64,000 bases of DNA from Verrucomicrobiota bacterium (GCA_040387795.1 JAZKDC010000027.1:85845-149844); one strand, 5' to 3'. Positions 7,069-34,517 are shown, counted from the first letter of the stretch. The notes: generated from the sequence alone by a model not told the origin. Numbers and translations are program-made.

Positions 7069-8247
7069 TCAGCAGCAGTCCGCCCCCGCACCGCTGTCGC
7101 AGCAATTGGAAGCAGCGGTGGTGGCGTGGTAGTCGAGGCCCTTGGTTTCCCTGGGATGCCGCAGGCGGGTGGTGGTGCAGTCGAAGGGGACTGTGGTGTC
7201 GGCGGGGACTTCGAGGCGGGGTCCGATGAATTCGAAAAAGCTCCGGTAGGGGGCTTTGTTGTAAAGCTGGAAGGTTTTGTCGCAGACCGCGTAGCGTTTG
7301 CCGCGTTCCATGGCGTGTCCGTCGTCGTCGAGCACTTTGAGGAATGGGCCTTTGTAGATCACCGCCTGGTTGCGTTCGAAGCACGGCCCTTGTTTCCCTT
7401 TCCATGCCTGCACGGTGACACTGCGGAACTCGATGCCTTTCACGGTCTGCCATGGTGCGGCATCGCGTTTCAGGATCTCAATGCCGTAAAATCCAGCCTC
7501 CCGAAAGGCTTGCAGAAATCCATCCTCGGTGAAGGCCCCGCTGATGCAGCCACTCCAGAGGACGGGATCTTTCTGCAGGTCCATGGGAATTTCCTCATCA
7601 CTGACGATGTCCGAGATGACGGCCCGCCCGCCATCTTTAAGCACCCGGAAGATTTCCTCGAAGAGGCGGCGCTTGTGCTGCGAATCCACCAGATTGAGCA
7701 CACAATTGGACACCACCACATCCACCGAGTCCGTGGCGACCAGCGGATGTTTCATCCGCAGGTCACTGGCCAACTCATCGGCGGCCAGAAAGGAAGCGGC
7801 GTCCTTGATGGGACGTTTTTTCAATTCAGCGTCGAGGATTTCAAGATCAAGCGCCAGATCCTGGATGCGCCCCTTGCGGAACTCCACATTCGCAAACCCG
7901 GTGCGCTCCGCCACAATGGGGGCATTGCGCCGCGCCACTTCCAGCATGTCATCGGTCATGTCCACTCCAATGACTTTGCCCGCCGCGCCCACCACCTGCG
8001 CCGCGATAAAACAGATTTTCCCGGTACCGCTGCCAAGGTCGAGCACGGTCTCGCCGGGCTGGAGATACCTGGAGGGATCGCCGCAGCCATAATCTTTCTC
8101 GATGACTTCGGCCGGGATGATTTTCAGATACTGCGGATCGTAGTCCACCGGACAGCACAGGGCGGCCTCGGGTGCTTTGGCCGCGGCGGCGTAGCGCTCG
8201 CGGGTAGCGCTTTCGGCGGAAGGCGTGACAGAAGAGGAAGTGCTCAT
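7069..8247 (-). CDS. arsM: Arsenite SAM-methyltransferase-like protein (ArsM family, class I MTase).
   Basis: The SAM-binding motif VLDLGSGTGKICFIAAQVVG is present. Conserved Cys pairs are ALCCPVDYDP and DYGCGDP at the N-terminus, and a C-terminal Cys cluster NCCDSGAGADCC. The 392-aa size and the adjacency to the ArsS-like rSAM gene are typical of the arsenosugar ArsM/ArsS pair. Confidence 0.8.
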   Translation of the reverse strand: MSTSSSVTPSAESATRERYAAAAKAPEAALCCPVDYDPQYLKIIPAEVIEKDYGCGDPSRYLQPGETVLDLGSGTGKICFIAAQVVGAAGKVIGVDMTDDMLEVARRNAPIVAERTGFANVEFRKGRIQDLALDLEILDAELKKRPIKDAASFLAADELASDLRMKHPLVATDSVDVVVSNCVLNLVDSQHKRRLFEEIFRVLKDGGRAVISDIVSDEEIPMDLQKDPVLWSGCISGAFTEDGFLQAFREAGFYGIEILKRDAAPWQTVKGIEFRSVTVQAWKGKQGPCFERNQAVIYKGPFLKVLDDDGHAMERGKRYAVCDKTFQLYNKAPYRSFFEFIGPRLEVPADTTVPFDCTTTRLRHPRETKGLDYHATTAASNCCDSGAGADCC

Positions 8248-18622: not shown

Positions 18623-19876
18623 ATGAACGAACAATCCTCCCCCGCCTTCGCCCGTACCGCATGGCTGATGGTCCTGCTGCTGGTGCCGGTCGCCCTGCTG
18701 AACTATCTCGACCGCCAGATGCTGGCCGCCATGAAGGCCTCCATGGTGGCCGATATTCCTGACATCCAGAACAAAGCCGCCTGGGGCATCGTGCTCGGTT
18801 CCTTTAAATGGGTGTATGCCATCCTGAGTCCGGTCGGCGGTTACTTCGCGGACCGCCTGAGCAAACGCCACGTCATCTGCGCCAGCCTCTTTGTCTGGTC
18901 CGCCGTAACATGGTGGACCGGACATGTCAGCACCTATCATGAATTGCTGTGGGCGCGCGCCCTGATGGGGATCAGCGAGGCTTTCTACATCCCGGCCGCC
19001 CTCGCCCTGATCACGGAATTCCATCTGGGGGCCACCCGCTCCCGCGCCGTCGGCTTCCATCAAATGGGCATTTATGCCGGGATCATCCTGGGAGGATTTT
19101 CCGGTTATGTGGCCGATGCGCCGGACTTCGGCTGGCGCTTCGCCTTCAGCGCCTGCGGCCTGATCGGGATCGCTTATGCCCTGCCCCTGTTTGCCCTGCT
19201 GCGGAATCCCGCGCCTCCCGCCATCGCACCGGAACCGGTTTCACTGCCCGGCGCCACCGGCGAGCTATTCCGCAACAGAAATTTCATCCTGCTGGTGATC
19301 TACTTCACCCTGCCCGCCCTCGCGGGTTGGGTGGTGAAGGACTGGATGCCGGATATTCTGCGGGAAAAATTCCACCTCGGCCAGGGCAAGGCCGGGGTCT
19401 CCGCGGTGTTGTATGTCCAGATCGCTTCCCTGATCGGCGTCGGCCTCGGCGGCTGGCTGGCGGACCGTTGGATGCGTAAAAATATCCGCGGCCGGATTTT
19501 TGTCAGTGCCCTCGGCATGATCCTGTTCCTGCCGTCCCTTTTCGGCGTGGGCAATGCCGGCACGCTCGGCATGGCGGTGTGTTTTCTCATGATGTTCGGC
19601 CTGGGCTGGGGGTTCTTTGATTGCAATAACATGCCCATCCTCTGCCAGATCGTCCGTCCTCAATTGCGGGCCACCGGTTACGGTTTCATGAATCTGGTCA
19701 GTATCAGCTGCGGCGGATTTGCCGATTGGGGATTCGGCGCCCTGCGCGACCGGCACGTGCCCTTGAATCTGATCTTCGGGGCCTTCGCGGGGATTGCCCT
19801 GCTCAGCGCCGTGGTGGTGCTTCTCATCAAACCCCGGACCGATCCTGCCAGCATGTCTCCCCCCTCTGTCTCGTGA
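18623..19876 (+). CDS. MFS transporter.
   Basis: There are 12 predicted hydrophobic segments and the MFS signature LNYLDRQMLAAM / GYFADRLSKR. The ATG lies 7 bp after the FG-GAP gene stop. The track ORF start at 18329 overlaps the upstream gene. Confidence 0.8.
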   Translation: MNEQSSPAFARTAWLMVLLLVPVALLNYLDRQMLAAMKASMVADIPDIQNKAAWGIVLGSFKWVYAILSPVGGYFADRLSKRHVICASLFVWSAVTWWTGHVSTYHELLWARALMGISEAFYIPAALALITEFHLGATRSRAVGFHQMGIYAGIILGGFSGYVADAPDFGWRFAFSACGLIGIAYALPLFALLRNPAPPAIAPEPVSLPGATGELFRNRNFILLVIYFTLPALAGWVVKDWMPDILREKFHLGQGKAGVSAVLYVQIASLIGVGLGGWLADRWMRKNIRGRIFVSALGMILFLPSLFGVGNAGTLGMAVCFLMMFGLGWGFFDCNNMPILCQIVRPQLRATGYGFMNLVSISCGGFADWGFGALRDRHVPLNLIFGAFAGIALLSAVVVLLIKPRTDPASMSPPSVS

Positions 19877-19985
19877 AGCCGGTTTGACCCGTCTGCCTGC
19901 CCGGGAATGTACCGGAAAACCCAGGCCCGGAAAACCCGCAGAATTTTCTGGTCACAAACCCGGCCCGGCGGGCCATTATTCCTTG

Positions 19986-21494
19986 ATGATGACGAGCGAT
20001 CAGGAATTACTGAGGGCCTATGTGACCGGCACCCACGGCGCGTTCCGTGAGCTGGTGGAGCGTCATGCCGGCATGATTTTTGGAGCAGCATGGCGGGTCA
20101 CCGGCGACCGGACCATGGCCGAAGAGGTAGTGCAGGATGTGTTTTGCCTGCTGGCCCGGAAATCGGCCGCCTTGTCAGGGCATCCCAGTGTCGCGGGCTG
20201 GCTGCATCGGACCGCGATCAATGCTGCCCGCAGCCAACGGCGCGCCCGGGTCCATCATGAGCAGAAGCTGGCCCGGTTTGCTTCGGAATCCCGGGAATCC
20301 GGCCAGGAGGAAGCAGCGCCAGCCGGGGATGCGGAAATCGATTCCGCAATCGACCGGCTGCCCTCGGAGGAGCGGGAGGCGGTCGTGCTGCGGTTTTATC
20401 AGGATCAGGACTACGCCCAGATCAGTTCCCAGCTGGGGGTTTCTGAAATGGCGGTCCGCAAGCGGGTCTCCCGTGGTCTGCAACGCCTCCAACGGATCCT
20501 CGGCCCGTCGGCCGCCGCGGGATTCAGTCCAGCCTGCCTGGCCGGACCCGCCCCGGCCGGGGTCATGCAATCGGTGATCGCCGCCGCTCCGGCAATCCCC
20601 CCGGCGTTCGGTTTCCTCACTACCTTATTTCTTATGAACACCAAACCAGCCCTCGGCATCGCCGCCGCCACCCTGCTCACCGGAAGCCTCACCTGGTGGG
20701 GCACCAGCCTTTCCTCGGAAAACCAGCGCCTCGGCACCGAATTGGCCACGCTGCGCGCCAGCCTTTCCGATCCAGCCCAGCCCTCGGCCAACAAGGGGTC
20801 AGGGAAGACTACGGCATTGGACGCCTCATCTCCTGCCCCGGGCGTGGCAGACCTGCAGGCCGCTCTGGAGGCCGAGCGCGAAAAACGCCTCGCCGCCGAA
20901 CGCGATGCCAAATCGGTGCGCGACCAAATCGCCCAACTGCAGGGCGAGGTGGTGGTCTCCTATGGCAAAGTCACTCAGATCGGATCCACCCTTGGTTCCG
21001 TTTTCACAGAAGCCCTCGCCTTGGTCGAATGGGAGAAAAATGGCAAACTCGCGACCCCGGAGGGGGAGACCCGCTTTGGCAAATTCCTCGAACAGGCAGG
21101 CTCCATTTCCGGGCTGTCCAAGGAGATCATCAACTTCGAGGATGTGCCTGAGGAGGGCAGCCGTTTCATCGCCTCGGCCTATGGTGCCGCCTTCGGATTG
21201 GATGAGGCCGGTCAGGAAAAAATCGCCAGCTTCTTTTCCAAACGGCTGGAAGAGGCGGGCGCGAAAAAGTTTACCCTCGCCAATCTTCCGGCGCGCGGTT
21301 CCGCGGAGTTCCACCCGTGGCTGGAACAACGCTGGGCTTTCTTTGAGGAAAGCCGCGGTCAGCTCCGCGAACTCATCCCGGAGGCCAAACAATCCGACTT
21401 TGATCAGATGATCGAAAAAGGGGGCTACGGCTTTAAAAATCTGACCGTTAAAGGAATGCCGTTGATGTTCTCCCTGGGAGGGGATCCGCGCTGA
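19986..21494 (+). CDS. ECF-type sigma-70 factor (regions 2 and 4) fused to a C-terminal transmembrane/coiled-coil/extracytoplasmic extension.
   Basis: The N-terminal ~190 aa has sigma region 2 (ELLRAYVTGTHGAFRELVERHAGMIFGAAW...) and region 4 (EREAVVLRFYQDQDYAQISSQLGVSEMAVRKRVSRGLQRL). A TM helix MNTKPALGIAAATLLTGSLTWWG and a coiled-coil domain follow in the same reading frame with no stop. A paralogous protein lies at 57811..59343. Confidence 0.7.
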   Translation: MMTSDQELLRAYVTGTHGAFRELVERHAGMIFGAAWRVTGDRTMAEEVVQDVFCLLARKSAALSGHPSVAGWLHRTAINAARSQRRARVHHEQKLARFASESRESGQEEAAPAGDAEIDSAIDRLPSEEREAVVLRFYQDQDYAQISSQLGVSEMAVRKRVSRGLQRLQRILGPSAAAGFSPACLAGPAPAGVMQSVIAAAPAIPPAFGFLTTLFLMNTKPALGIAAATLLTGSLTWWGTSLSSENQRLGTELATLRASLSDPAQPSANKGSGKTTALDASSPAPGVADLQAALEAEREKRLAAERDAKSVRDQIAQLQGEVVVSYGKVTQIGSTLGSVFTEALALVEWEKNGKLATPEGETRFGKFLEQAGSISGLSKEIINFEDVPEEGSRFIASAYGAAFGLDEAGQEKIASFFSKRLEEAGAKKFTLANLPARGSAEFHPWLEQRWAFFEESRGQLRELIPEAKQSDFDQMIEKGGYGFKNLTVKGMPLMFSLGGDPR

Positions 21495-21537
21495 GGCCTT
21501 TTCCTCGTTTTCGAACCCTTTCCAACCATCCAACATC

Positions 21538-21768
21538 ATGAATCAGGCCGAAAAACAGAAAATGCTGCGCACCAACACCCTGCTCTGGCTGGCGGCCATG
21601 GTCCTGCCGGGCGTACTTCATATCGCCTTCTCCTCCACACGCTTTCCGTGGCCGGTGATTATGCCCTTTTTGTTGTTCGGGGCTCTGCTGGCTTCAAATC
21701 AAATGCTGGCCAGGGCCATCGGAAAACCGACCGATGAACAGGAACCGGACATCAAGCCCGGGGACTGA
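21538..21768 (+). CDS. Small hypothetical membrane protein (76 aa).
   Basis: It has two hydrophobic segments and lies downstream of the sigma-fusion gene. Support is weak. Confidence 0.3.
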   Translation: MNQAEKQKMLRTNTLLWLAAMVLPGVLHIAFSSTRFPWPVIMPFLLFGALLASNQMLARAIGKPTDEQEPDIKPGD

Positions 21769-21772
21769 TTCA

Positions 21773-23182
21773 TCAAGGCCAGGTCACCGCTGCCGGGACG
21801 CGCTGCCCCTTGCCCCTGGTTTTAGTCAGGGTGTCACCCAGTTCTTCCCGGGCGGCCTGGGCCAGCGCTGACAGTTGCTGCAGAGCGGCGGGCTCGGTGG
21901 CGGCCAGGTCCTTGGTTTCACCCGGATCTTTTTCCAGATCATACAACTCCAGCCCGGTCGTGGCGCGACCGTGTTTTCCGGTCAGCCCATCGGCCCCGGT
22001 CTTTTCGATGGTCCGGTAGGCATGAGGAAGAATCAGCTTCCATTTGCCACTGCGCAGGGCCTGCAGCTCGTGGTTGCCATAATAAAACACGAGGGATTCA
22101 TGCGGTGACTTCGCCCCGGCTTCCCCACGCAGCAGCGGGCCGATGTCCTTGCCGTCGATCGCTTTTTCCGGCAGCGCCGCCCCCGTCAGGGCCGCCAGAG
22201 TCGGGAGGATATCAATCGTTCCCGCCACCTCCCGGCACACCGTCCCGGCGGGGATTTTACCGGGCCAGCGCATCAGGCACGGCACCCGGATGCCACCTTC
22301 CCAACAGGTCCCCTTGGACTCGCGGAAGGGTCCGGCGCTGCCCGCGTGGTTGCCGTAAATCGACCACGGGCCATTGTCGCTGGTGAAAATCACGAGGGTG
22401 TTTTCATCCAGCCCCTGGGTCTTCAGAGCCGTCAGGATTTCACCCACCGCCCAGTCGATTTCCTGGATCACATCCCCATACAGGCCCTGGGCCGATTTCC
22501 CTTTGAACTTGTCACTGACATAAAGCGGCACGTGCGGCATGGAAGGCGCGACATAGAGGAAAAACGGCTTGGTTTTGTGTTCAGTGATGAACTTCACGGC
22601 ACGCTCCGCATACCGTGTGGTCAGGGTCGCCTGATCTTCGGCAGACACTTCCGGATCGGCCGCGGCGGCATTTTCCATCAAAGGCAGCGGGGGATAACTC
22701 CCCGTTTTAGCATTCGGATTCTCCGGCCACATGTCGTTCGAATAAGGCAGGCCAAGATACTCATCAAACCCCTGCTTCACCGGCAGCAGATCGGGATGGT
22801 CCCCCAAATGCCATTTCCCGAACATCCCCGTGGCATAACCTTTCGCCTTCATCACTTCCGCGAGGGTGGTTTCCTCAGGATTCAACCCGGTCCGGCTCTT
22901 TGGCCCCAAGGCCCCATTGATCCCCACCCGCGCCGGATAACAACCCGTCAGCAAAGCCGCCCGCGACGCCGAGCACACCGGCGCCGCCACGTAGAAGTCG
23001 GTAAAACGCATCCCCTCCGCAGCCATCCGGTCGAGGTTGGGCGTGCTGTAACCCTTCGCTCCCTGCACTCCGATATCCCCGTAGCCCTGGTCGTCGGTAT
23101 AAATCATCACCACATTGGGAGCGGCCGCCCACAGGGAAGTGGCGGTCAAGCTAAGCAGGAGTAATTGAAGGACGCGGGTCAT
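21773..23182 (-). CDS. Sulfatase (formylglycine-dependent arylsulfatase family).
   Basis: Signal peptide present. The motif region PVCSASRAALLTG (a CxAxR variant of the FGly motif) together with GKWHLG is typical of sulfatases. Confidence 0.85.
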   Translation of the reverse strand: MTRVLQLLLLSLTATSLWAAAPNVVMIYTDDQGYGDIGVQGAKGYSTPNLDRMAAEGMRFTDFYVAAPVCSASRAALLTGCYPARVGINGALGPKSRTGLNPEETTLAEVMKAKGYATGMFGKWHLGDHPDLLPVKQGFDEYLGLPYSNDMWPENPNAKTGSYPPLPLMENAAAADPEVSAEDQATLTTRYAERAVKFITEHKTKPFFLYVAPSMPHVPLYVSDKFKGKSAQGLYGDVIQEIDWAVGEILTALKTQGLDENTLVIFTSDNGPWSIYGNHAGSAGPFRESKGTCWEGGIRVPCLMRWPGKIPAGTVCREVAGTIDILPTLAALTGAALPEKAIDGKDIGPLLRGEAGAKSPHESLVFYYGNHELQALRSGKWKLILPHAYRTIEKTGADGLTGKHGRATTGLELYDLEKDPGETKDLAATEPAALQQLSALAQAAREELGDTLTKTRGKGQRVPAAVTWP

Positions 23183-23334
23183 GGGGATAATTTACGCAGC
23201 CAGAGGAAGCTCCTGCACGATAAAAATGACCGCGTTTCCGTCAATCCGGTCCCATGGCCGGGCGAATACAAACATGCCGCCCGGATTATACTCGACTTTC
23301 TCCTGACAAAACGTAAGTAGCACCCCTCAACCGT

Positions 23335-26937: not shown

Positions 26938-29403
26938 TCACGCGCCCGCCGGTTCCAAGGTGCCGAGCGTCACACCCAGTTTTGACTGCGCCTTCAGACT
27001 GCGCCAAAGATCGGCCCCCTCCGCCCGGCCTTCCAGCAGGGCGCGGTAGGTGTGCAGCACGCGGCGCACCCCGGCCGGGTCCTCTTCCAGCAATTCAATC
27101 CGGCAGCGGCGCAACCCAGCGGCGTGAAGCTGCGCGTAATATTGGGCCCCGGTCTGGGCCTGGGCATTGAATAACGTATTCCGGCAGCCGACATCGGCCT
27201 TCAGGGGATGTTCCATGCCGACGCGGTCGCGCAGTTTGACGGAATGTTTTTCACAGGGCCGGCCGCAATCGAGGAAAGTTTTTCCCTGGGACATGAAGGC
27301 CGCAAAAACGCAATGCTCCATGTGAAACATCGGCATGTGCTGGTGCAGCGTCAGTTCGAACCACGATGGCGGAGCGCCCGCCAGCAAACCGAGCACCTGG
27401 GTGATATTCAGATCGTAGGAAACCGTCAGGACATCCAGCCCCTCCTCCTTGAAAAACGCCGCCGTCAGGGGATTGGCGACATTCAGGGAAAAGTCGCCCA
27501 CCGTTTCCAGCCCACGCTTCGTGAACCACGGCACGGCGCCCAGATTCCTCACCAGCACCCCATGCGGATTGGCGCGTTCGATCAGTTTGAAAAAGCCCTG
27601 CTCCCCGGGTTTTTGAATGCGGGGCGTCGCCAGCAGCAGCCGCATCGCGGAGGTGTCGCGGACCCGCTGCACCGCTTCCGCATAACCGCGCACGTCCTCG
27701 AAATCCGCATAGGCCACCGCGATCCCTTCCGCCGCGCAGACCTCCACTTGCTCCAGGGTCCGGCAGAGCACGGAGAGTTCCATCTCGGCAGCGGGAGGTG
27801 GTGCCGGACGGTTCCGGACCGCTTCCAGGAACGGTCCAACCTCCACCACCGGCCGGGTTTCCGCCAGAGTGTCAGGCTTTCCGGAAGACACCGCATCCAG
27901 CCGTTCCACCAACTCCCGGCGCATCCGGTTCAGCTCGCTGACCGGCAGCATCAGGTCGCCGGTGACCCGGTAGTCCACGGCCCCCAAAGCGTAAGCCGTG
28001 CCGCCCAGCCGGCCGAGTTGATCCCGCAGCGTCTCTTCCGTGAGCGGCCGCTTCAGCGCCGGCACCAGCGGCATGGTGGAAACCACTTTGATCTCCCCGC
28101 AGACCAACTCCAGCGGGCTGCCTTCGTTTCCGCCGACCACCACATTCAAGGCCTGCACCGGCTGCCATCCGGCCTCTTTTTCAAAAGTTGCCCGCAGCCT
28201 TTTGTCCAGGGCCGGATCGCTGGTTTTCCAAACCCGGTCGCCCGGCTGAAGCCTGGAAAAATCGACCTTGCCGCGCGCAAACGTCAGACGGTTGCCTATC
28301 ACTTCAAAAACCCGCCCGCCCTGCTCATCATTGGTGTCGCCGCCGGTATCAAAAACCACGCCATCCCCCGCTTTGAGATTGGCTCCCACCGATTCCAGTT
28401 CCACCCAGTCGCGCCCGGCCTGACGGACCCGGCCCACCATGGCGCCCCGTTTTTTGCCGTAACGGGCTCCCACCAATTGCTGGTGGTTCACGCCATGCAT
28501 CCACCCGCTGAACAAGCCCCGGCTGAACGTCATCTCCAAAGCATACCGGTCTTCGGCGGTGGCCATCGGGCCATCCGTTTTTCCGGCGAGGGCGGCATCA
28601 ATAGCCTTGCGGTAAACCGCCGTCACCGCCGCGACGTATTCCGGAGATTTCAGACGGCCTTCGATTTTGAAACTGCGCACGCCCCGCGCCAGCAGGGCCG
28701 GGATTTCCTCCACCGCCGAGAGGTCCTGCGGGGACAACAGATACCGTTTGTCCCCCAGATCCGTCAGCTCGCCATCCACTATCAATTCATAAGGCATCCG
28801 GCAAGCCTGGGCGCACTCGCCGCGGTTGGCGCTGCGTTGCCCGAGACTTTCGCTGGTCAGGCATTGGCCGGAATAGGCCACACACAACGCCCCATGCACA
28901 AAAACCTCCAACGGCACCGTGGTTTCCCGGAAACGCTCCAGCTCGCGCAGCGACAACTCCCGCGCCAGCACGGCCCGGTCCAGCCGGAGCCGGTCGTGCA
29001 TGAAAGCGAGGCCTTCCGGAGAAGTGAGGGTCATCTGCGTGCTGGCATGCAGGGCCAGCTTTGGCGCCACCGCCCGGGCCAGCCGCGCCAGACCGATATC
29101 CTGGACAATGATGGCATCCACCCCCGCCGCTTCGAGGGTGCGGAGCTGCTCCGCGGCGTCCGCCAGCTCGCTGGTGAAAATCAGGGTATTCATCGTCACC
29201 AGACCCCGCACCCCGTGCCCGTGCAGGTATTCCATCAGCCTGGGCAGGTCCTCCTCCGTGAAATTGTCCGCCCTCATCCGGGCATTGAAGCGCGGCATCC
29301 CGAAAAAGATCGCATCCGCCCCATTCGCCACCGCCGCCCGGGCGCACTCCCAGTTCCCCGCCGGGGAAAGGAGTTCCGGAGCCATGTTGTCCTGCATTGT
29401 CAT
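26938..29403 (-). CDS. Peptidase U32 family protein (long, DUF3656-containing form).
   Basis: The N-terminus has ELLSPAGNWECARAAVANGADAIFFG and the Cys-rich CxxC region, as in YegQ/RlhA-like U32 proteins. The length is 822 aa. The start is placed at MTMQDN, which aligns with the duplicated fragment at 30888. Confidence 0.8.
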   Translation of the reverse strand: MTMQDNMAPELLSPAGNWECARAAVANGADAIFFGMPRFNARMRADNFTEEDLPRLMEYLHGHGVRGLVTMNTLIFTSELADAAEQLRTLEAAGVDAIIVQDIGLARLARAVAPKLALHASTQMTLTSPEGLAFMHDRLRLDRAVLARELSLRELERFRETTVPLEVFVHGALCVAYSGQCLTSESLGQRSANRGECAQACRMPYELIVDGELTDLGDKRYLLSPQDLSAVEEIPALLARGVRSFKIEGRLKSPEYVAAVTAVYRKAIDAALAGKTDGPMATAEDRYALEMTFSRGLFSGWMHGVNHQQLVGARYGKKRGAMVGRVRQAGRDWVELESVGANLKAGDGVVFDTGGDTNDEQGGRVFEVIGNRLTFARGKVDFSRLQPGDRVWKTSDPALDKRLRATFEKEAGWQPVQALNVVVGGNEGSPLELVCGEIKVVSTMPLVPALKRPLTEETLRDQLGRLGGTAYALGAVDYRVTGDLMLPVSELNRMRRELVERLDAVSSGKPDTLAETRPVVEVGPFLEAVRNRPAPPPAAEMELSVLCRTLEQVEVCAAEGIAVAYADFEDVRGYAEAVQRVRDTSAMRLLLATPRIQKPGEQGFFKLIERANPHGVLVRNLGAVPWFTKRGLETVGDFSLNVANPLTAAFFKEEGLDVLTVSYDLNITQVLGLLAGAPPSWFELTLHQHMPMFHMEHCVFAAFMSQGKTFLDCGRPCEKHSVKLRDRVGMEHPLKADVGCRNTLFNAQAQTGAQYYAQLHAAGLRRCRIELLEEDPAGVRRVLHTYRALLEGRAEGADLWRSLKAQSKLGVTLGTLEPAGA

Positions 29404-29440
29404 CGGAACCTGTCCCCTGTTTTGGGGGCCCGCGCAACCC
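29226..29440. repeat. Left copy of a ~215-bp direct repeat (U32 promoter plus first ~57 codons). Its partner is at 30710-30925.
   Basis: Direct comparison of the two copies shows ~92-93% identity. The repeats bracket the low-GC segment 29445-30709. Confidence 0.8.
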
Positions 29441-29646
29441 ATTGAAGTCCAAGTGGGCGGCGCGCCTTGGCGTAGAACTCATCGCCAGCACACGACGCTG
29501 CTTGGCAAGCGTTGGAGTCATCAAGGCCGCGAACCACCACGAACGACGGCAACATCGTGGAATCTCCTTCGTAATTTGCATCGCAAATTGAATCTCCAAA
29601 TTGAATCTCTCGCAAATGGATTCAAATTGCTGCTGTAATGTCCCGG

Positions 29647-30567
29647 CTAATTCTCGTAGTTGAGGCTCGTGTTCGACCCGTCGGCACTTTTAGGAAGAGA
29701 TGCGACGTTGTTAAACAGCGCCTCATACCTCGAATCATTTCCCCTGCCCAAAATCCTGGAGGAGTTGACTTTAATTTTCGAGGAAAATGTAATTCCATCT
29801 TTTACAAAAGAATTCTCGTCAGGATCAGCTTCTCGGCTTCTGATTTCGGAATCCACTCTGAGACGGTTTTCACCATTCATTCCTGTTTCATAAGCCAAGC
29901 GAACTTCGGACCCTATGGATTTGAGCATGCCATCGTATCCTGCCAAGTCGCCGACGAATTTAGCTGTAGTGGGATCAAACGACTTTTCGATCTTCTTTTT
30001 GAAATCGGACATCAGTTGCCCCGGATCAAACGGTTTGATGACAATCTCCTCATCCCCGGACGCATTCGAATTCACATAGGCATTTTTCACCTCCTCCGAT
30101 TTAACCGCCGAGACGAAATCATTTACTTCCTTCCTAAGAATTTCCGCGTGTGCAGCATCGAGTTCCAACAACGCAATCACTGCCTCATTAAGACTCAGGT
30201 CCTCCGCGCCAAGCAGGTTCAAATGGGAGCCTCTCGCTATCGATGACCACCTTCGGTATTTGGCTTCTTCCAAGGTATTGTCCAAGGGTTTCACAGCACC
30301 GCTATCAGCGACACGGAAATCATGAGACCTTGGGGGGGATTGGGTGGAGGCCGGGGGCGCCGTTTTCTGATCGTGGCCGGGCTTCGTCTGAGCCACGGAT
30401 GAAAGCGGATTAGCGTTGGAAGGGACTGCGGAGAAAACTTGCTGGTCAGCGAGGTGAGTTAACTCATCTGGCGGAGCCTTGAGTTTGGACGTCACCCACA
30501 ATCCAAGAACCAAAATCAGTACCCCTGCCATTATGAGGCGGTGGACTGGCGTCGTTCGTTGCATCAT
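29647..30567 (-). CDS. Hypothetical membrane-anchored protein (306 aa) encoded on a low-GC insertion.
   Basis: It has an N-terminal TM helix (LIMAGVLILVLGLWV) followed by a hydrophilic Lys/Glu/Ser-rich domain. Local GC is clearly below the surroundings. The gene is flanked by ~215-bp direct repeats. Confidence 0.5.
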   Translation of the reverse strand: MMQRTTPVHRLIMAGVLILVLGLWVTSKLKAPPDELTHLADQQVFSAVPSNANPLSSVAQTKPGHDQKTAPPASTQSPPRSHDFRVADSGAVKPLDNTLEEAKYRRWSSIARGSHLNLLGAEDLSLNEAVIALLELDAAHAEILRKEVNDFVSAVKSEEVKNAYVNSNASGDEEIVIKPFDPGQLMSDFKKKIEKSFDPTTAKFVGDLAGYDGMLKSIGSEVRLAYETGMNGENRLRVDSEIRSREADPDENSFVKDGITFSSKIKVNSSRILGRGNDSRYEALFNNVASLPKSADGSNTSLNYEN

Positions 30568-30681
30568 TTGGAGAGAATGAAATCCTGAAGGAAGAATTTA
30601 AGCAATCACAATTCGCGTCAATTTTGTGATGTGAGTGCCGGGACTTCCTCCAAGGCAGGAAATCCGGTAAAATTCAATTTT

Positions 30682-30888
30682 TCACGCAAATAAGGAGGAA
30701 AGTGGAAAGTGGTATTCCATCAGCCTGGGCAGGTCCTCTTCCGTAAAATTGTCCGCCCGCATCCGGGCATTAAAGCGCGGCATCCCGAAAAAGATCGCAT
30801 CCGCCCCATTCGCCACCGCCGCCCGGGCGCACTCCCAGTTCCCCGCCGGGGAAAGGAGTTCCGGAGCCAAGTTTTCCTGCTTTATCAT
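30682..30888 (-). pseudogene. Duplicated 5' fragment of the U32 peptidase gene (first ~57 codons), truncated.
   Basis: MIKQENLAPELLSPAGNWECARAAVANGADAIFFGMPRFNARMRADNFTEEDLPRLMEY is near-identical to the N-terminus of the U32 gene at 29403. Nucleotide identity is ~93% over ~215 bp and includes upstream non-coding sequence. Homology ends abruptly at 30710. Confidence 0.65.
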
Positions 30889-30982
30889 CGGGACCTGTCC
30901 CCTGCTTTGACGGCCAGTGCAACCCGCGCCATGGCCTGCGGCGGACGAATCCGCCGCAGGCTGGTTGATCGGGTCCGGCGGA

Positions 30983-33019
30983 TTACGCGGCCTTTTTGAG
31001 CTCCGGTTTTTCTTCCTGCACCTGCTGGGTGGCCTGCCAGGTGGTCAGCACGCTCATCAGCGTTTGGAAGAGACTGGTCTGCGGGCTGGCGTTGCCTTCG
31101 CCCTGACCGCCGAGAATGACGAGGCGCTCCGGCACCAGCGGCTGGACGCTCTGGGCCAGTTGGGTCGCCATCAGGTTCATGGCGTAGAGCCGCGGGTCAC
31201 CCAGTGCTTCGACTTTCAATTCACTGACGCGGGCTTCGGCTTCACCGACCTGGGCAATGCGGGAGGCTTCCCCCTGACCGATCAGCACGGCGGCGCGGCC
31301 CTGCCCTTCCGCCAGGGTCACTTCGCGGCGCGCGAGGTTTTCCGCTTCGGCGAGCTGGGCCGCACCCCGGTTGCTGGCGATTTCAATTTCAATCTTGGTC
31401 TGGGTCAGGTGCGTCTGGCGTTCGGCCTGGGCCTGGGCTTCATTCAGTTGTTTCAGCTGGACCGCGGCTTCCTGCTGCTTGCCGAAGGTTTCCTTTTGTT
31501 CCTCGACCAGACGGCGCTGGCGCAACTGGTCGAAGAGGCGCTCGATCGGATCTTCCGTTTGGGTATTGCGGGGATCCGACTCGGGCCGGCCAATCAGGAC
31601 CGCCACGCAGTTGATATCATATTCGAGGAACCGCCGGCCCAGCTCCGCGGTGGCCCGCTTCTGAATATCCTCACGGTGGGTGAGCAGCTCCAGCATGCTG
31701 CTTGATTGCGCCACGTCACGGAAGTAGGCCGTCAGGATCGGATCCAGCGTCTGGCTGATGAGGCGCTTCACATCGCCGAACCGCTGCACCACGCGGGGGG
31801 CCTTTTCGTAATCGATGTGCAGCACGAGGGACAGCGGCAGCAAAGGTTCGTAGGCGTCGGCGGTGATGATGGGAATGCTGGCCAGTTGTTCATCGTAACG
31901 ATGGGTTTCCGTCTGCCCGCTGACCCAGCGCAGGACAAAGTTGACTGTGGGCACCAGTTCAATTTTCAAGGCGTAGGGATTGAGCGCATACTTGCCCGGA
32001 GCGAGGGCCTGCTTCCACACCCCGCGGCTGCCGGAGTTCACCTGCTCGCCATAGCGGAATTGGTTGCCGGTGACGTCCTCGCCGCTTTGGCCGTAGTAGC
32101 TGATGATAACCCCGACGTAACCGATGGGGATCAGGGTCTTCGGTTTCAGATCCACCGTGGCGAACCAGCGGTTGATGAAATAGGTGCCGTCCGTCAGCAC
32201 CTGCAACTGCCGGCCGCGGCGGCCGTTGAGGGACAGGAATTCCTCGATGTCCTGGAAATAATTGTGCCCGCTGTGACCGGCCTCGGCACTGCCGACCTGG
32301 GGGGCGATGAATTCACCTGGATCAAGCGTGGGGCCATCCTGCACGGTGACGATGCCGAGGTTATCCTGCATCGCCAAACCGTTTTCCTGGGCGATCGGGC
32401 TGCGCTCGTCGCGGACCACCGTGGCGGCATCATACCCCACGCGGACAGGGCTGAAACCGCCTCCGCCCATCAACTCCTTCTGCCAGTGCTCGAACTGCGC
32501 CAGTTCCTCCTTCCGGGAAATGCCGGCATAAACGTTCTGCTCACTGATCACGACAAATAACGCCGTATTGATGGCATAGACCCCTTCACGCAAAATGGCA
32601 CGTTGCCGGCCGCGCTGCCCACCTCCGGTGAGAAAGGTGGCGGCGTCCTGGAAGGCATTGCAGGGCACGCTGCGGGCGAGGGTTTGCACTTGCTCCAGCG
32701 GGGCTCCGTCACGGGCATACACGTAGCCGATCCGTCCTTCACCGATGGTGACGAGCGGCACCGTGTGGATGCTGTATTGCCAGAGCGGATAGCCAAAATG
32801 CAGCCCGCCGCGCAGCGGAGTCGCCTGCAGTCCGGCCTCGCCGTTCAGGGCGATGATCCGGCCCTCTTCCAGCGATCCCTTGCCGGACCATAGCTTTTCG
32901 ATGATGCCCACCCGGCTGTGCGGAATATAACGCACGCCAAGGATGAGGTGGATGATGAGCCAGAGCGCCAGAGGCGTGGCCACGATGAACCCGAGCCAGA
33001 ACAGAGTTTGTCCGGTCAT
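30983..33019 (-). CDS. SPFH/band-7 (flotillin / YqiK-like) membrane protein.
   Basis: The start is taken at MTGQTLFWLGFIVATPLALWLII (TM anchor). The SPFH domain is followed by a long EA/Q-rich coiled coil (EAQAQAERQTHLTQTKIEIEIA...), as in flotillins. The 123 codons upstream in the track ORF have leader-like composition. Confidence 0.7.
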   Translation of the reverse strand: MTGQTLFWLGFIVATPLALWLIIHLILGVRYIPHSRVGIIEKLWSGKGSLEEGRIIALNGEAGLQATPLRGGLHFGYPLWQYSIHTVPLVTIGEGRIGYVYARDGAPLEQVQTLARSVPCNAFQDAATFLTGGGQRGRQRAILREGVYAINTALFVVISEQNVYAGISRKEELAQFEHWQKELMGGGGFSPVRVGYDAATVVRDERSPIAQENGLAMQDNLGIVTVQDGPTLDPGEFIAPQVGSAEAGHSGHNYFQDIEEFLSLNGRRGRQLQVLTDGTYFINRWFATVDLKPKTLIPIGYVGVIISYYGQSGEDVTGNQFRYGEQVNSGSRGVWKQALAPGKYALNPYALKIELVPTVNFVLRWVSGQTETHRYDEQLASIPIITADAYEPLLPLSLVLHIDYEKAPRVVQRFGDVKRLISQTLDPILTAYFRDVAQSSSMLELLTHREDIQKRATAELGRRFLEYDINCVAVLIGRPESDPRNTQTEDPIERLFDQLRQRRLVEEQKETFGKQQEAAVQLKQLNEAQAQAERQTHLTQTKIEIEIASNRGAAQLAEAENLARREVTLAEGQGRAAVLIGQGEASRIAQVGEAEARVSELKVEALGDPRLYAMNLMATQLAQSVQPLVPERLVILGGQGEGNASPQTSLFQTLMSVLTTWQATQQVQEEKPELKKAA

Positions 33020-33509
33020 ATGTTGTGTTTTCTCCTGTTTTTTGTGGTGATGGCCCGAACCCCGCACTGCGGAGTGTGGATCAGGCGATGACGTTCCCTG
33101 GAGGAAAAGAGGCGCTACAGCGCTTCCGGGTTTCCTCCGGTTGGACAGGAGGGAGAACGGGGCGTCGCGGAGTCTCTCAGTGATGCTGACGGAGTTAGCT
33201 GTCGGGCTGGAGCCACTAAGTGCCCCCGACGCCGCAGGCGTCGTTCGCCCCAAGTTGCCGCCGGCAAATGAGCTGGCGGAACGGGATTTGGGTCCCCCGT
33301 GGTCCCGGCGGCGAAGCCGGAACCTTAAGCTGACAAAGAACTGCCCAAGGATAGGGCCGGTTTTTGAAAATGCAAATGAGGTCCGCACAAGTCCCTCAAC
33401 ATGAACGCCAAACTCCTGAACAATAGTCAGCTTTCCAAGCCGGAACCTACGCCAAAAGCATCATTACGGAATGGCGTTGAGGTATCGGCGTCCAACCAGG
33501 CGGGACAGT

Positions 33510-34517
33510 TCATCTCACTGGGACCAGCGGTGTGACAGAGGCCGTGGCGGCAATGGCTTGACGCAGTTCTGCGAGCATCTTTGGGATTTCGACGAACGAA
33601 TCATAGCCCTTCCGTTTCATCGACAGGGTCTCGATGGGCACATACCCGCGGTAGCCGGACTGGCGGATGAGTGTGACCAGCTTTTTCATGTCCGTGAGGG
33701 GGGAATCTGTGGAGCTGCCGGTGGTTTCCTTGATCTGCCAGTTCACGGCATACGGGGCCACCTGGGCAATGTCGGCGTAGGGATCGGTTGTCAGGTATTT
33801 GCCAGTATCCACGAGCGCGGCGCACCATTCGTGGTCGACGCGGTTCAGCAGGCTGAGGTGTTCCGCACCGGTATTGATGAAGTCGCCATGGTTTTGCACC
33901 CCTACGATGACGCCAAATTTCTTGCCGTGATCCGCGCACCCTCGCAGATCATCGGCCAGCCAGGCTTCCACCTCCGCCCGCAGGGCATTGCCGCTGGCCT
34001 GCTGCCAGTTTTTGAACGGCGGCTGGGAATCAGCAAAGGCCCGGATCACGGGAGCTCCCAGTTTGGCAGCGACTTCGATCCAGGTCTTGAGGCGCTGCAC
34101 CCCTTCGGCGCGGACAGATTTGTCGGCGGTGGTGAAGTCGTTGCGGACGCCGGTGCCGCTGATTTCCAGACCGAGATTGAAGGCGTGGCGCTTCAGCTTG
34201 TAGAGATAGGCATCATCAGGGGCCTTCGGGTAGCCGGGGAAAAAGTAGCCGGTGAAGTCCACTGCCTCAAAATCATGTTTGGCGCAGAAGTCGCAGACCT
34301 GGAACAAATCCACTCCTTTGGCAGGGTCCTTGTCGTTGGCATTGAGCAGCTCCAGAAAGGAGTAGGCGTTCAGGGAGGTCTTCAACAAAGCGCCTCCCGT
34401 GCGGGAAACCGGAGCGAGCGCGGCCGGGGCCGTCACGACCGGAAAGCCGGCACCGGCAGCCATGGGCAGCAGGGCGGCGTGCTTGAGAAAGGAGCGGCGG
34501 GTGGCGGGAAAGGACAT
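33510..34517 (-). CDS. TAT-exported sugar phosphate isomerase/epimerase (xylose-isomerase-like TIM barrel).
   Basis: Twin-arginine signal MSFPATRRSFLKHAALLPMAAGAG. A TIM-barrel motif pattern follows (GVQNHGDF..., IETLSMK...). Confidence 0.65.
   Translation of the reverse strand: MSFPATRRSFLKHAALLPMAAGAGFPVVTAPAALAPVSRTGGALLKTSLNAYSFLELLNANDKDPAKGVDLFQVCDFCAKHDFEAVDFTGYFFPGYPKAPDDAYLYKLKRHAFNLGLEISGTGVRNDFTTADKSVRAEGVQRLKTWIEVAAKLGAPVIRAFADSQPPFKNWQQASGNALRAEVEAWLADDLRGCADHGKKFGVIVGVQNHGDFINTGAEHLSLLNRVDHEWCAALVDTGKYLTTDPYADIAQVAPYAVNWQIKETTGSSTDSPLTDMKKLVTLIRQSGYRGYVPIETLSMKRKGYDSFVEIPKMLAELRQAIAATASVTPLVPVR

Follow-up and report, generated by a model that had tools for sequence, protein, structure and literature searches.

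How did the 5' end of a housekeeping gene come to stand twice in one locus, once as part of the intact gene and once as an orphan stub, with low-GC DNA between the two copies? The question is raised by a stretch of 64,000 nucleotides from an uncultured Verrucomicrobiota bacterium of the order Verrucomicrobiales (GCA_040387795.1 JAZKDC010000027.1:85845-149844), referred to here as the window, in which the 5' end of a U32 peptidase gene is repeated and the copies are separated by DNA that encodes a single predicted membrane-anchored protein, here named X. We found the same junction, at the same base, in two relatives, one of which carries different cargo between the same borders. The locus is a strain-variable slot and not one element, and three alleles of it were seen. 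To the origin we prefer we give an even chance: the repeats would be the scar of one old event, in which DNA bringing along its own U32 5' end was inserted with the help of homology, after which the cargo turned over.

The duplicated U32 5' end

All genes of the locus lie on the minus strand, in the order F (a gene for an SPFH membrane protein), a short spacer (i), the orphan copy of the U32 5' end (u5'), unique DNA, the intact U32 gene with its own 5' end (u5), a major facilitator superfamily (MFS) transporter gene and an enolase-superfamily gene (Table 1). A repeat search returned one direct repeat of 215 nt (29226-29440 and 30711-30925) with 201/215 identical positions (93%), 14 mismatches and no gaps, the copies being 1485 nt apart; this is well beyond chance. 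Length and identity agree with what the sequence-only reading, a first inspection of the window without database searches, had reported, and its remark that such repeats are too long for a transposon target duplication also stands. As it had described, the left copy is continuous with the intact gene and the right copy is truncated. The left copy runs unbroken into the U32 open reading frame (ORF), which is 821-834 aa long depending on the start (26938..29403/29442) and has full-length orthologues in 80 genomes. The stub ORF (30682..30888, 68 aa) leaves the U32 sequence after ...LMEY and ends with nine unrelated codons. There is an abrupt join to unrelated DNA at 30710/30711, while on the other side homology is continuous from 29440 into U32.

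The repeated part was first estimated at 57 codons and 50 bp of upstream DNA, which is close to the 59 codons and 37 nt of leader measured from the probable start, ATG 29403. A longer U32 N-terminus beginning with MGCAG... was rejected, since that in-frame ATG is missing both in the stub and in the related contig L084 (see below). A second U32 promoter copy upstream of the insert, as had been proposed, finds no backing: only the 37 nt of leader are duplicated, in the uninterrupted arrangement this leader begins 8 nt past a hairpin that follows the SPFH gene, and no sigma-70-like site was found in it, although Verrucomicrobial promoters may differ. The window stub has no indel. Its 4-5 changes in 159 coding nucleotides are all synonymous, and 9-10 further changes fall in 56 leader nucleotides. 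Coding change that is synonymous only, together with heavy leader divergence, is what would be expected if two functional alleles had evolved apart in separate genomes.

A collapsed or chimeric repeat is a general risk in metagenome-assembled genomes, and nothing beyond this risk speaks for an artefact here. The two copies differ at 14 positions, the Logan contig L081 (SRR26324620), which may share the window's sample, is 100% identical to window 30802..29355 and spans both inner junctions, and L093 and L094, independent ENA metagenome contigs from other samples, reproduce the junctions. The repeat structure is not an assembly artefact; the collapse that the sequence-only reading had named as a possible refutation is excluded by these contigs, and this explanation can practically be dismissed.

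A shared junction with different cargo

The stub-to-insert junction (...GGAATACC followed directly by ACTTTCC...) is identical in the window, L093 and L094, down to the same base. L093 differs from the window by a synonymous divergence (dS) of 0.17, with F 99% identical at the amino acid level, and L094 by a dS of 0.20 in U32. In both relatives the stub is frameshifted (+1 nt in L093, +7 nt in L094) and contains non-synonymous changes. A junction common to all three indicates that the event is old and not private to the window; either it arose before these lineages separated, or recombination has carried it from one to another. A recent, private insertion does not agree with this result, and the idea that the stub is a recently captured functional allele, and by itself proof of a recent event, is weakened by it.

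L094 can be aligned with window 31384..30672 and 29593..28562 (92.5-93.6% identity) and not in between. Its scaffold is the same as that of the window: the SPFH gene, the spacer, the stub, an inverted repeat named M, cargo, a second M, a 118-bp spacer named t and the intact U32 gene. The conserved borders stop at the inner edges of M. Between them L094 carries 1778 bp of 43% GC with two genes on the opposite strand from that of the window X gene, each product with an N-terminal hydrophobic segment. One of them, a 249-aa protein, matches a hidden Markov model (HMM) of the X family (79 members) at 8e-14, with an hhalign E of 6e-4. Judged by these profile matches, the L094 slot again holds a putative X-family gene, very divergent and in opposite orientation, together with a second, predicted exported protein. 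The inner flanks of the two cargos show no detectable similarity in either orientation, which rules out inversion of a homologous module between the M repeats. No recombinase domains and, at E<=1, no PADLOC matches were found in the L094 cargo proteins, and PHROG gave two weak matches to them (E 0.002 and 0.035). Same borders with different cargo do not support the idea of a single inserted element.

Borders of the slot

M is ~40 nt long with the core TTCGTAATTTGC-N3-GCAAATTGAAT. The copy nearer to U32, M_down, contains a perfect 7-3-7 palindrome, AATTTGC ATC GCAAATT. Copies of the outer repeat, M_up, are degenerate; that of the window is recognized by nhmmer with an E of 1e-6 (model from nine M copies). 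M_up and M_down are ~76% complementary, and the same pair is present in L094. A strict M pattern had no matches in JGI metagenome contigs and IMG/VR, and a 22-mer of the U32 leader had none in the JGI metagenome scan. The outer flanks of the unit, in gene orientation ...GGAATACC and CCACGATG..., share no short repeat, i.e. no short target-site duplication, and between M_down and the 215-nt repeat lies t.

The spacer t is 86% identical in L094 and was found nowhere else. It has no counterpart in the F-U32 spacer and no relation to spacer i, F or any other fetched sequence. Its reading frames change non-conservatively between the window and L094, and it is not coding-like. No Rfam match was obtained for t, and over 29000-31300 nothing scored below E 0.2. 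Origin of t from the Y1 transposase-like gene of L084 was ruled out: M alone is shared and the rest aligns at the level of shuffled sequence. Beside M_down (window 29594-29646), after the X stop codon, there are two tandem copies of GATTCAATTTG and one inverted copy (29584-29629 region); the RNA hairpins predicted at these copies are as stable as those of shuffled sequences (z 0.0).

The X protein family

That the insert is AT-richer and holds one gene for a 306-aa membrane-anchored protein agrees with our analysis: GC content is 44-50% over ~29550-30300 and 49% in the cargo, against 62% in the whole window, and X is the sole long ORF. Modelling predicts one N-terminal transmembrane helix; X, as a predicted membrane-anchored protein, presumably faces outward. 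The sequence-only reading had given weight to the low GC. Three X members that were checked are low-GC in their own hosts, and in contigs L098 and L108, of 58% GC, the X gene has 43%; low GC is probably a trait of the X family, and since it is also seen in other X hosts it does not date an import.

The phage and defence-system search that had been suggested for this protein brought nothing: there was no match in Pfam or NCBIfam, none in PADLOC at E<=1, none in PHROG at E<=0.1, and no tblastn match in phage or plasmid collections. An AlphaFold model is confident for residues ~100-240 only and gave no convincing structural neighbour or fold match. Four clusters of relatives came from a word-based search of 5.8 billion proteins and 77 from a profile search of 1.84 billion representatives; the family is small and uncharacterised. 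Members retrieved are ~250-340 aa long, and those inspected have a conserved core in common and a hydrophobic segment at the start. The ratio of non-synonymous to synonymous divergence (dN/dS) is 0.15-0.19 (0.19 against the gene in contig L082), i.e. X is under purifying selection.

Related X genes were found in another organism (L082, 1-1689, and L098-L107), where two genes, termed Xr-type and Xw-type, stand in tandem, with a glycosyltransferase-25 gene as their neighbour. In nucleotides the body of the first is 85% identical to the L084 body and that of the second 88% to the window body, and the N-termini differ. Combined with the head comparison given below, these identities show that the window X is a mosaic of the head shared with L084 and the body of the other paralogue type, which could have arisen either by body replacement or by deletion between tandem paralogues. 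L098 (6590-8000) retains the second paralogue only as a 3' remnant (7882-7982). Upstream of its first X gene are three copies of M, two in tandem on one strand and one on the other, which indicates that M travels with this X subfamily and is not part of U32.

A lineage with an uninterrupted U32 site

The nearest U32 relative among GTDB representatives is 80% identical in amino acids and has another upstream gene, which gives no information on the site. More informative are eight contigs of what we call the L084 type (L083-L089 and one without DNA sequence), whose U32 gene is ~94% identical to that of the window in nucleotides. Directly upstream of the same U32-MFS-enolase block they carry an X-family gene (product P0004, 36% identical to X in amino acids). 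Its promoter and first 58 codons are 89% identical in nucleotides to the window X head, with a dS of 0.30 in the head against 0.28 in U32, and its body is unrelated to that of the window at the nucleotide level. The order in L084 is the X stop codon, 58 bp, the last 191 nt of F, spacer i and an uninterrupted U32 gene. This arrangement indicates an ancestral adjacency of F and U32 with the site at codon 59 unbroken. At codon 59 the L084 type is uninterrupted, but its X module lies 464 bp further upstream, inside the 3' end of F, which is truncated. One M is found upstream of X, and there is neither M_down nor t. A fully empty F-U32 allele was not found among the sequences retrieved.

Several further observations were made on this lineage. 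L084 (2-181, minus strand) contains the start of a gene with a weak match to Y1_Tnp (IS200-like; E 0.075 over 60 aa), ~40 nt from M; L083, L084 and 17-kb ERZ1426736 contigs begin or end inside this gene, which suggests that it is multi-copy. Between M and the X promoter, L087 (260-1573, minus strand) has a gene for a 437-aa IS481-like DDE transposase (NCBIfam E 4e-5, below the cut-off); at the same spot only the first 26 codons of this gene are present in L083, L085 and L086, and none of it in L084. P0126, a 113-aa product of a 633-bp ENA contig, begins like the U32 N-terminus of the L084 type (MTKQDNM...) and leaves U32 after residue ~87, so a longer U32 stub may exist in this lineage. The heptamer CTGATGG stands 8 nt before the stub/M junction (30720-30726) and again at 31167-31173, exactly where the L084-type insertion joins F (|TGATGGCGACC); this may be chance, for which a rough post hoc estimate gives ~2%. 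A 224-aa gene of contig L090, considered as the gene upstream of X in relatives, was rejected, being SecG.

Origin of the arrangement

We propose that U32 received foreign DNA just past codon 59, in a Verrucomicrobiales ancestor of this lineage. The incoming DNA would have consisted of a module bounded by two M repeats and carrying an X-family gene, then t, then its own U32 leader and 59 codons. The incoming 5' end would have been fused in frame with the resident body, which keeps U32 intact, and the resident 5' end would have been left as a dead stub beside the SPFH gene. On the most economical reading, recombination would have been anchored by U32 homology on one side and completed by an illegitimate join on the other, either by homology-facilitated illegitimate recombination (HFIR) of linear DNA or, equivalently, by a single crossover with a circle carrying that piece of U32. 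The donor may have been a related strain with the M-X module already upstream of U32. The content between the M repeats would later have turned over, perhaps through ordinary homologous recombination between the conserved flanking sequences, perhaps through an activity that acts at M.

What the locus displays, namely a stub, an abrupt join, foreign DNA and a second 5' end that passes seamlessly into the gene, is the topology given by recombination anchored in U32 homology. The allele-like divergence of the two copies points the same way, the lack of relation of t to spacer i or F fits upstream DNA derived from a donor, and the coincidence of the stub end with the outer end of M fits a donor in which the M-X module lay upstream of U32. 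Integration by recombination into the U32 5' region, as the sequence-only reading proposed, survives in its homology-based form, which is the best model and is in line with the uninterrupted site of the L084 type. For the site-specific route no recombinase was found in the insert or among the predicted genes scanned within ~15 kb.

A number of points weigh against the proposed origin. The donor arrangement (M-X-M-t-U32 without a stub) was not found in any collection searched and the donor is hypothetical. Between the stubs of the three lineages 8-13 changes were counted, fewer than the ~24-28 expected from dS under neutrality, and the six u5 sequences form a star without donor and recipient clades. 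Part of the history has since been erased by gene conversion or by later recombination. The L084 type, with the same X head, its junction in the SPFH gene and neither M_down nor t, needs a second event. Finally, cargo borders exactly at the inner ends of M hint at a site-specific process, for which homologous recombination in the flanks has no need.

Such a process is central to two other explanations. In one, the locus is the decayed remainder of a site-specific integrative element, island- or prophage-like and served by a tyrosine or serine recombinase, that entered at the U32 5' end and carried a replacement for it. What we see would then be a rump flanked by attachment sites, its leftover content varying, with M as an arm site or an end site, and the case would be the mirror image of icd, where e14 and phage 21 enter at the 3' end. 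In agreement with this are direct repeats by which the target gene is restored and which diverge as alleles do, inverted repeats near both ends and the low-GC cargo, as is an independent U32 stub in contig L095 that is broken only 13 nt away; the last coincidence is biased, because the query consisted of the first 59 residues. However, neither the cargo of the window nor that of L094 holds a recombinase, and the scan of predicted genes within ~15 kb found none. X lacks PHROG, phage and plasmid homology, the two weak PHROG matches concerning the L094 cargo only, and the M pattern is absent from IMG/VR. Moreover, the cargos differ right up to the inner M edge in both alleles, which is unlike differential decay of one element, and a copy of the L084 type sits at a different junction. 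We regard a decayed element as unlikely. The other explanation is a cassette slot that is still active, in which a site-specific system, supplied in trans, would recombine at M to exchange or invert X cassettes and the U32 duplication would be incidental; candidates are an unlinked invertase and, in the L084 type, the neighbour of M that resembles a Y1 (IS200-like) transposase gene. The cargo boundaries at the inner M ends of two alleles, the opposite orientation of the X-family gene in L094, the 7-3-7 palindrome, the three M copies beside an X gene in another genome and the Y1_Tnp-like N-terminus 40 nt from M in L084, within which contigs break as they do in a repeated gene, can be cited for it. 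Against these stand the weak Y1 assignment (E 0.075 for a 60-aa fragment) with no such gene in the window, the missing homology of the cargo inner flanks in either orientation, the degenerate M_up copies, and the absence of the strict M pattern from JGI metagenome contigs and IMG/VR, with only three lineages known. An active slot seems to us less probable again than a decayed element. The more specific idea that M is the site of an undescribed exchange or inversion system for a fast-diversifying X, moved in trans perhaps by a Y1/HUH-like enzyme, with the stub as one of its landings, we hold to be distinctly improbable.

An origin in situ would need no donor U32: the U32 5' end would have been duplicated in tandem, with the M-X module landing between the copies, or the 215 bp would be a target duplication made in repair. 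The arrangement is indeed common to relatives, and a comparison of the u5 copies across all lineages gives a star whose branches are of similar length, with no substitutions specific to a donor. However, on the gene side the copies are separated by the 118 bp of t, which have no counterpart in the locus, the stub end falls exactly at the outer M end, and synonymous-only coding change beside heavy leader divergence is unexpected for a copy that has been a pseudogene since its duplication. Adjacent copies were seen in no relative. The same arrangement in relatives with uniform GC was to have marked the locus as an old tandem duplication; the arrangement is there, but GC is not uniform, the cargo differs and the DNA between the copies is unrelated. 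The locus is not a simple old tandem duplication, and an in-situ origin in its wider sense has, in our estimate, only a small chance, slightly below that of a decayed element.

Locus features and neighbouring genes

Table 1. Features of the U32 locus in the window, listed from the SPFH gene to the U32 gene and followed by the parts of the cargo
Feature	Position	Strand	Description
F, SPFH/Band 7 membrane protein gene	30983..32989	-	668 aa from probable start MTGQTLFW; Pfam Band_7 1.9e-13
Spacer i, between F and U32 leader	30926..30982	-	57 nt; 12-bp GC-rich hairpin at ~30929-30964
u5' (right repeat copy), orphan U32 stub	30711..30925	-	37 nt leader and 59 codons
Unique DNA between the copies	29441..30710	-	1270 bp
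M_up, outer inverted repeat	30672..30710	-	ACTTTCCACTTTCCTCCTTATTTGCGTGAAAAATTGAAT; directly abuts the stub
Cargo	29594..30671	-	1078 bp, 49% GC; X promoter region, X gene and 3' hairpin region
M_down, inner-facing inverted copy of M	29559..29593	+	GGAATCTCCTTCGTAATTTGCATCGCAAATTGAAT; kept in L094 (2494-2544)
t, spacer from M_down to intact U32 leader	29441..29558	-	118 bp, 59% GC, not AT-rich
u5 (left repeat copy)	29226..29440	-	leader and first 59 codons of intact U32
Intact U32 peptidase gene	26938..29403	-	821 aa from ATG 29403; Pfam Peptidase_U32 8e-88 and DUF3656
X gene	29647..30567	-	306 aa; sole long ORF in the insert
X head	30392..30625	-	58 nt upstream and first 58 codons (signal anchor); 89% nt identical to L083-L089
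X body and 33 nt past the stop	29614..30357	-	88% nt identical to L082 gene of other context with other N-terminus

The upstream neighbour of the stub, F, has thousands of homologues, among which source names are YqiK/SPFH. Its mechanically predicted ORF reaches 133 codons beyond the likely start, and an unusually long gap of ~520 bp (32990-33510) separates this start from the upstream gene, which encodes a xylose-isomerase-like TIM-barrel protein. The hairpin of spacer i, just past the SPFH stop codon, is perfect over its 12 bp and has no T-run (fold -33.3 kcal/mol, z -3.46); the spacer is 89-95% conserved in L083-L089, L093 and L094, and the hairpin is present in all relatives. In L090/L091 (JGI, Logan) an SPFH gene 86% identical in nucleotides is followed by two amidohydrolase genes and no U32. 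Because these neighbours differ, adjacency of F and U32 is confined to close relatives of the window.

Downstream, synteny with L083 and L084 is broken at window 19500-23200, near a sulfatase gene and an ORF resembling an extracytoplasmic function (ECF) sigma factor. In place of the L084 sulfatase gene L083 has a minus-strand gene of 356 aa, and there are short patchy matches around 20529-21867 only. The independent U32 5' stub of L095 (1867-2202) belongs to a more distant lineage (83% identical in nucleotides here). It is broken after ...EEDLPE, 13 nt before the breakpoint of the window, has no M, and its neighbours are a gene for a tetratricopeptide repeat (TPR) protein upstream and an outer-membrane efflux gene downstream.

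Meaning and comparison with known systems

Under the proposed origin the locus would be a clean natural case in which a housekeeping gene survived the entry of foreign DNA at its 5' end because that DNA brought a spare 5' end along. The kinds of event involved, gene-end replacement on insertion and homology-assisted capture, are already known, and on present evidence this is not a new system. Three things have not been described before: the X family with its 77 clusters of membrane-anchored proteins, the conserved ~40-nt repeat M that accompanies one X subfamily, and the variable slot in uncultured freshwater or soil Verrucomicrobiales. If M were a recombination site, it would define a new cassette system, by which Verrucomicrobia would vary an envelope protein in a way not seen before; if it is not, the locus is a useful but ordinary instance of how recombination diversifies a locus for an envelope protein. 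What most deserves further attention is M, together with the X family.

Of the features of insertion sequences (IS) and transposons, terminal inverted repeats are present, and no transposase lies between the M repeats, which in the window enclose X alone; the IS481-like (L087) and Y1-like (L084) genes lie outside the M-X unit. No integron integrase was seen among the genes scanned, and M, ~40 nt with a 17-bp palindrome, is not an attC site. Invertible segments bounded by short inverted repeats are known, as are the pdif (Xer) modules of Acinetobacter plasmids, in which the XerC/XerD site is 28 bp long (11-6-11). Here, too, inverted repeats flank the segment; no invertase was found near the locus, and the opposite orientation of the gene was observed in a comparison of lineages whose cargo sequences are unrelated. 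The slot resembles pdif modules in that genes lie between short inverted repeats and that strain-variable cargo has the same borders, but the 7-3-7 palindrome of M is not a 28-bp 11-6-11 site.

In Campbell-type integration, familiar from suicide plasmids, a circle that carries an internal piece of the target enters by a single crossover, which duplicates the homology on both sides of the insert. The same topology is seen at U32; unlike in that case, the ends of the homology are the edge of conservation upstream of U32 and the edge of M, and the replicon is hypothetical. Replacement of a 3' end is well known for elements at tRNA genes and at icd, where e14 and phage 21 provide ~165 bp of substitute 3' end that differ mostly at silent sites; replacement of a 5' end without a recombinase is, to our knowledge, rarely documented. 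Both e14 and phage 21 integrate in icd of Escherichia coli (PMC12803456). As there, our insert stands between diverged copies of a gene end, the gene appears to have been kept intact by the incoming DNA, and the original end to have been displaced as a stub. The differences are that here the 5' end would have been replaced, that no allele contains integrase or phage genes, and that the insert is 1.1-1.8 kb long with lineage-variable content.

HFIR has been documented as a source of displaced gene fragments and has been proposed to create the arrays of 'displaced orphans' in type VI secretion system (T6SS) effector-immunity and Rhs loci (PMC3240628; PMC5361080). Unlike these arrays, our locus has no toxin or immunity signature, its remnant comes from the housekeeping neighbour U32, and HFIR is here inferred, with a hypothetical donor. 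The likeness lies in homology on one side with an illegitimate join on the other, and in remnants of an earlier allele left beside the new one. Like HFIR loci, the X genes also combine a constant head with a variable body (heads 89% identical, bodies 36% in amino acids), and in L098 the 3' remnant of a paralogue lies downstream.

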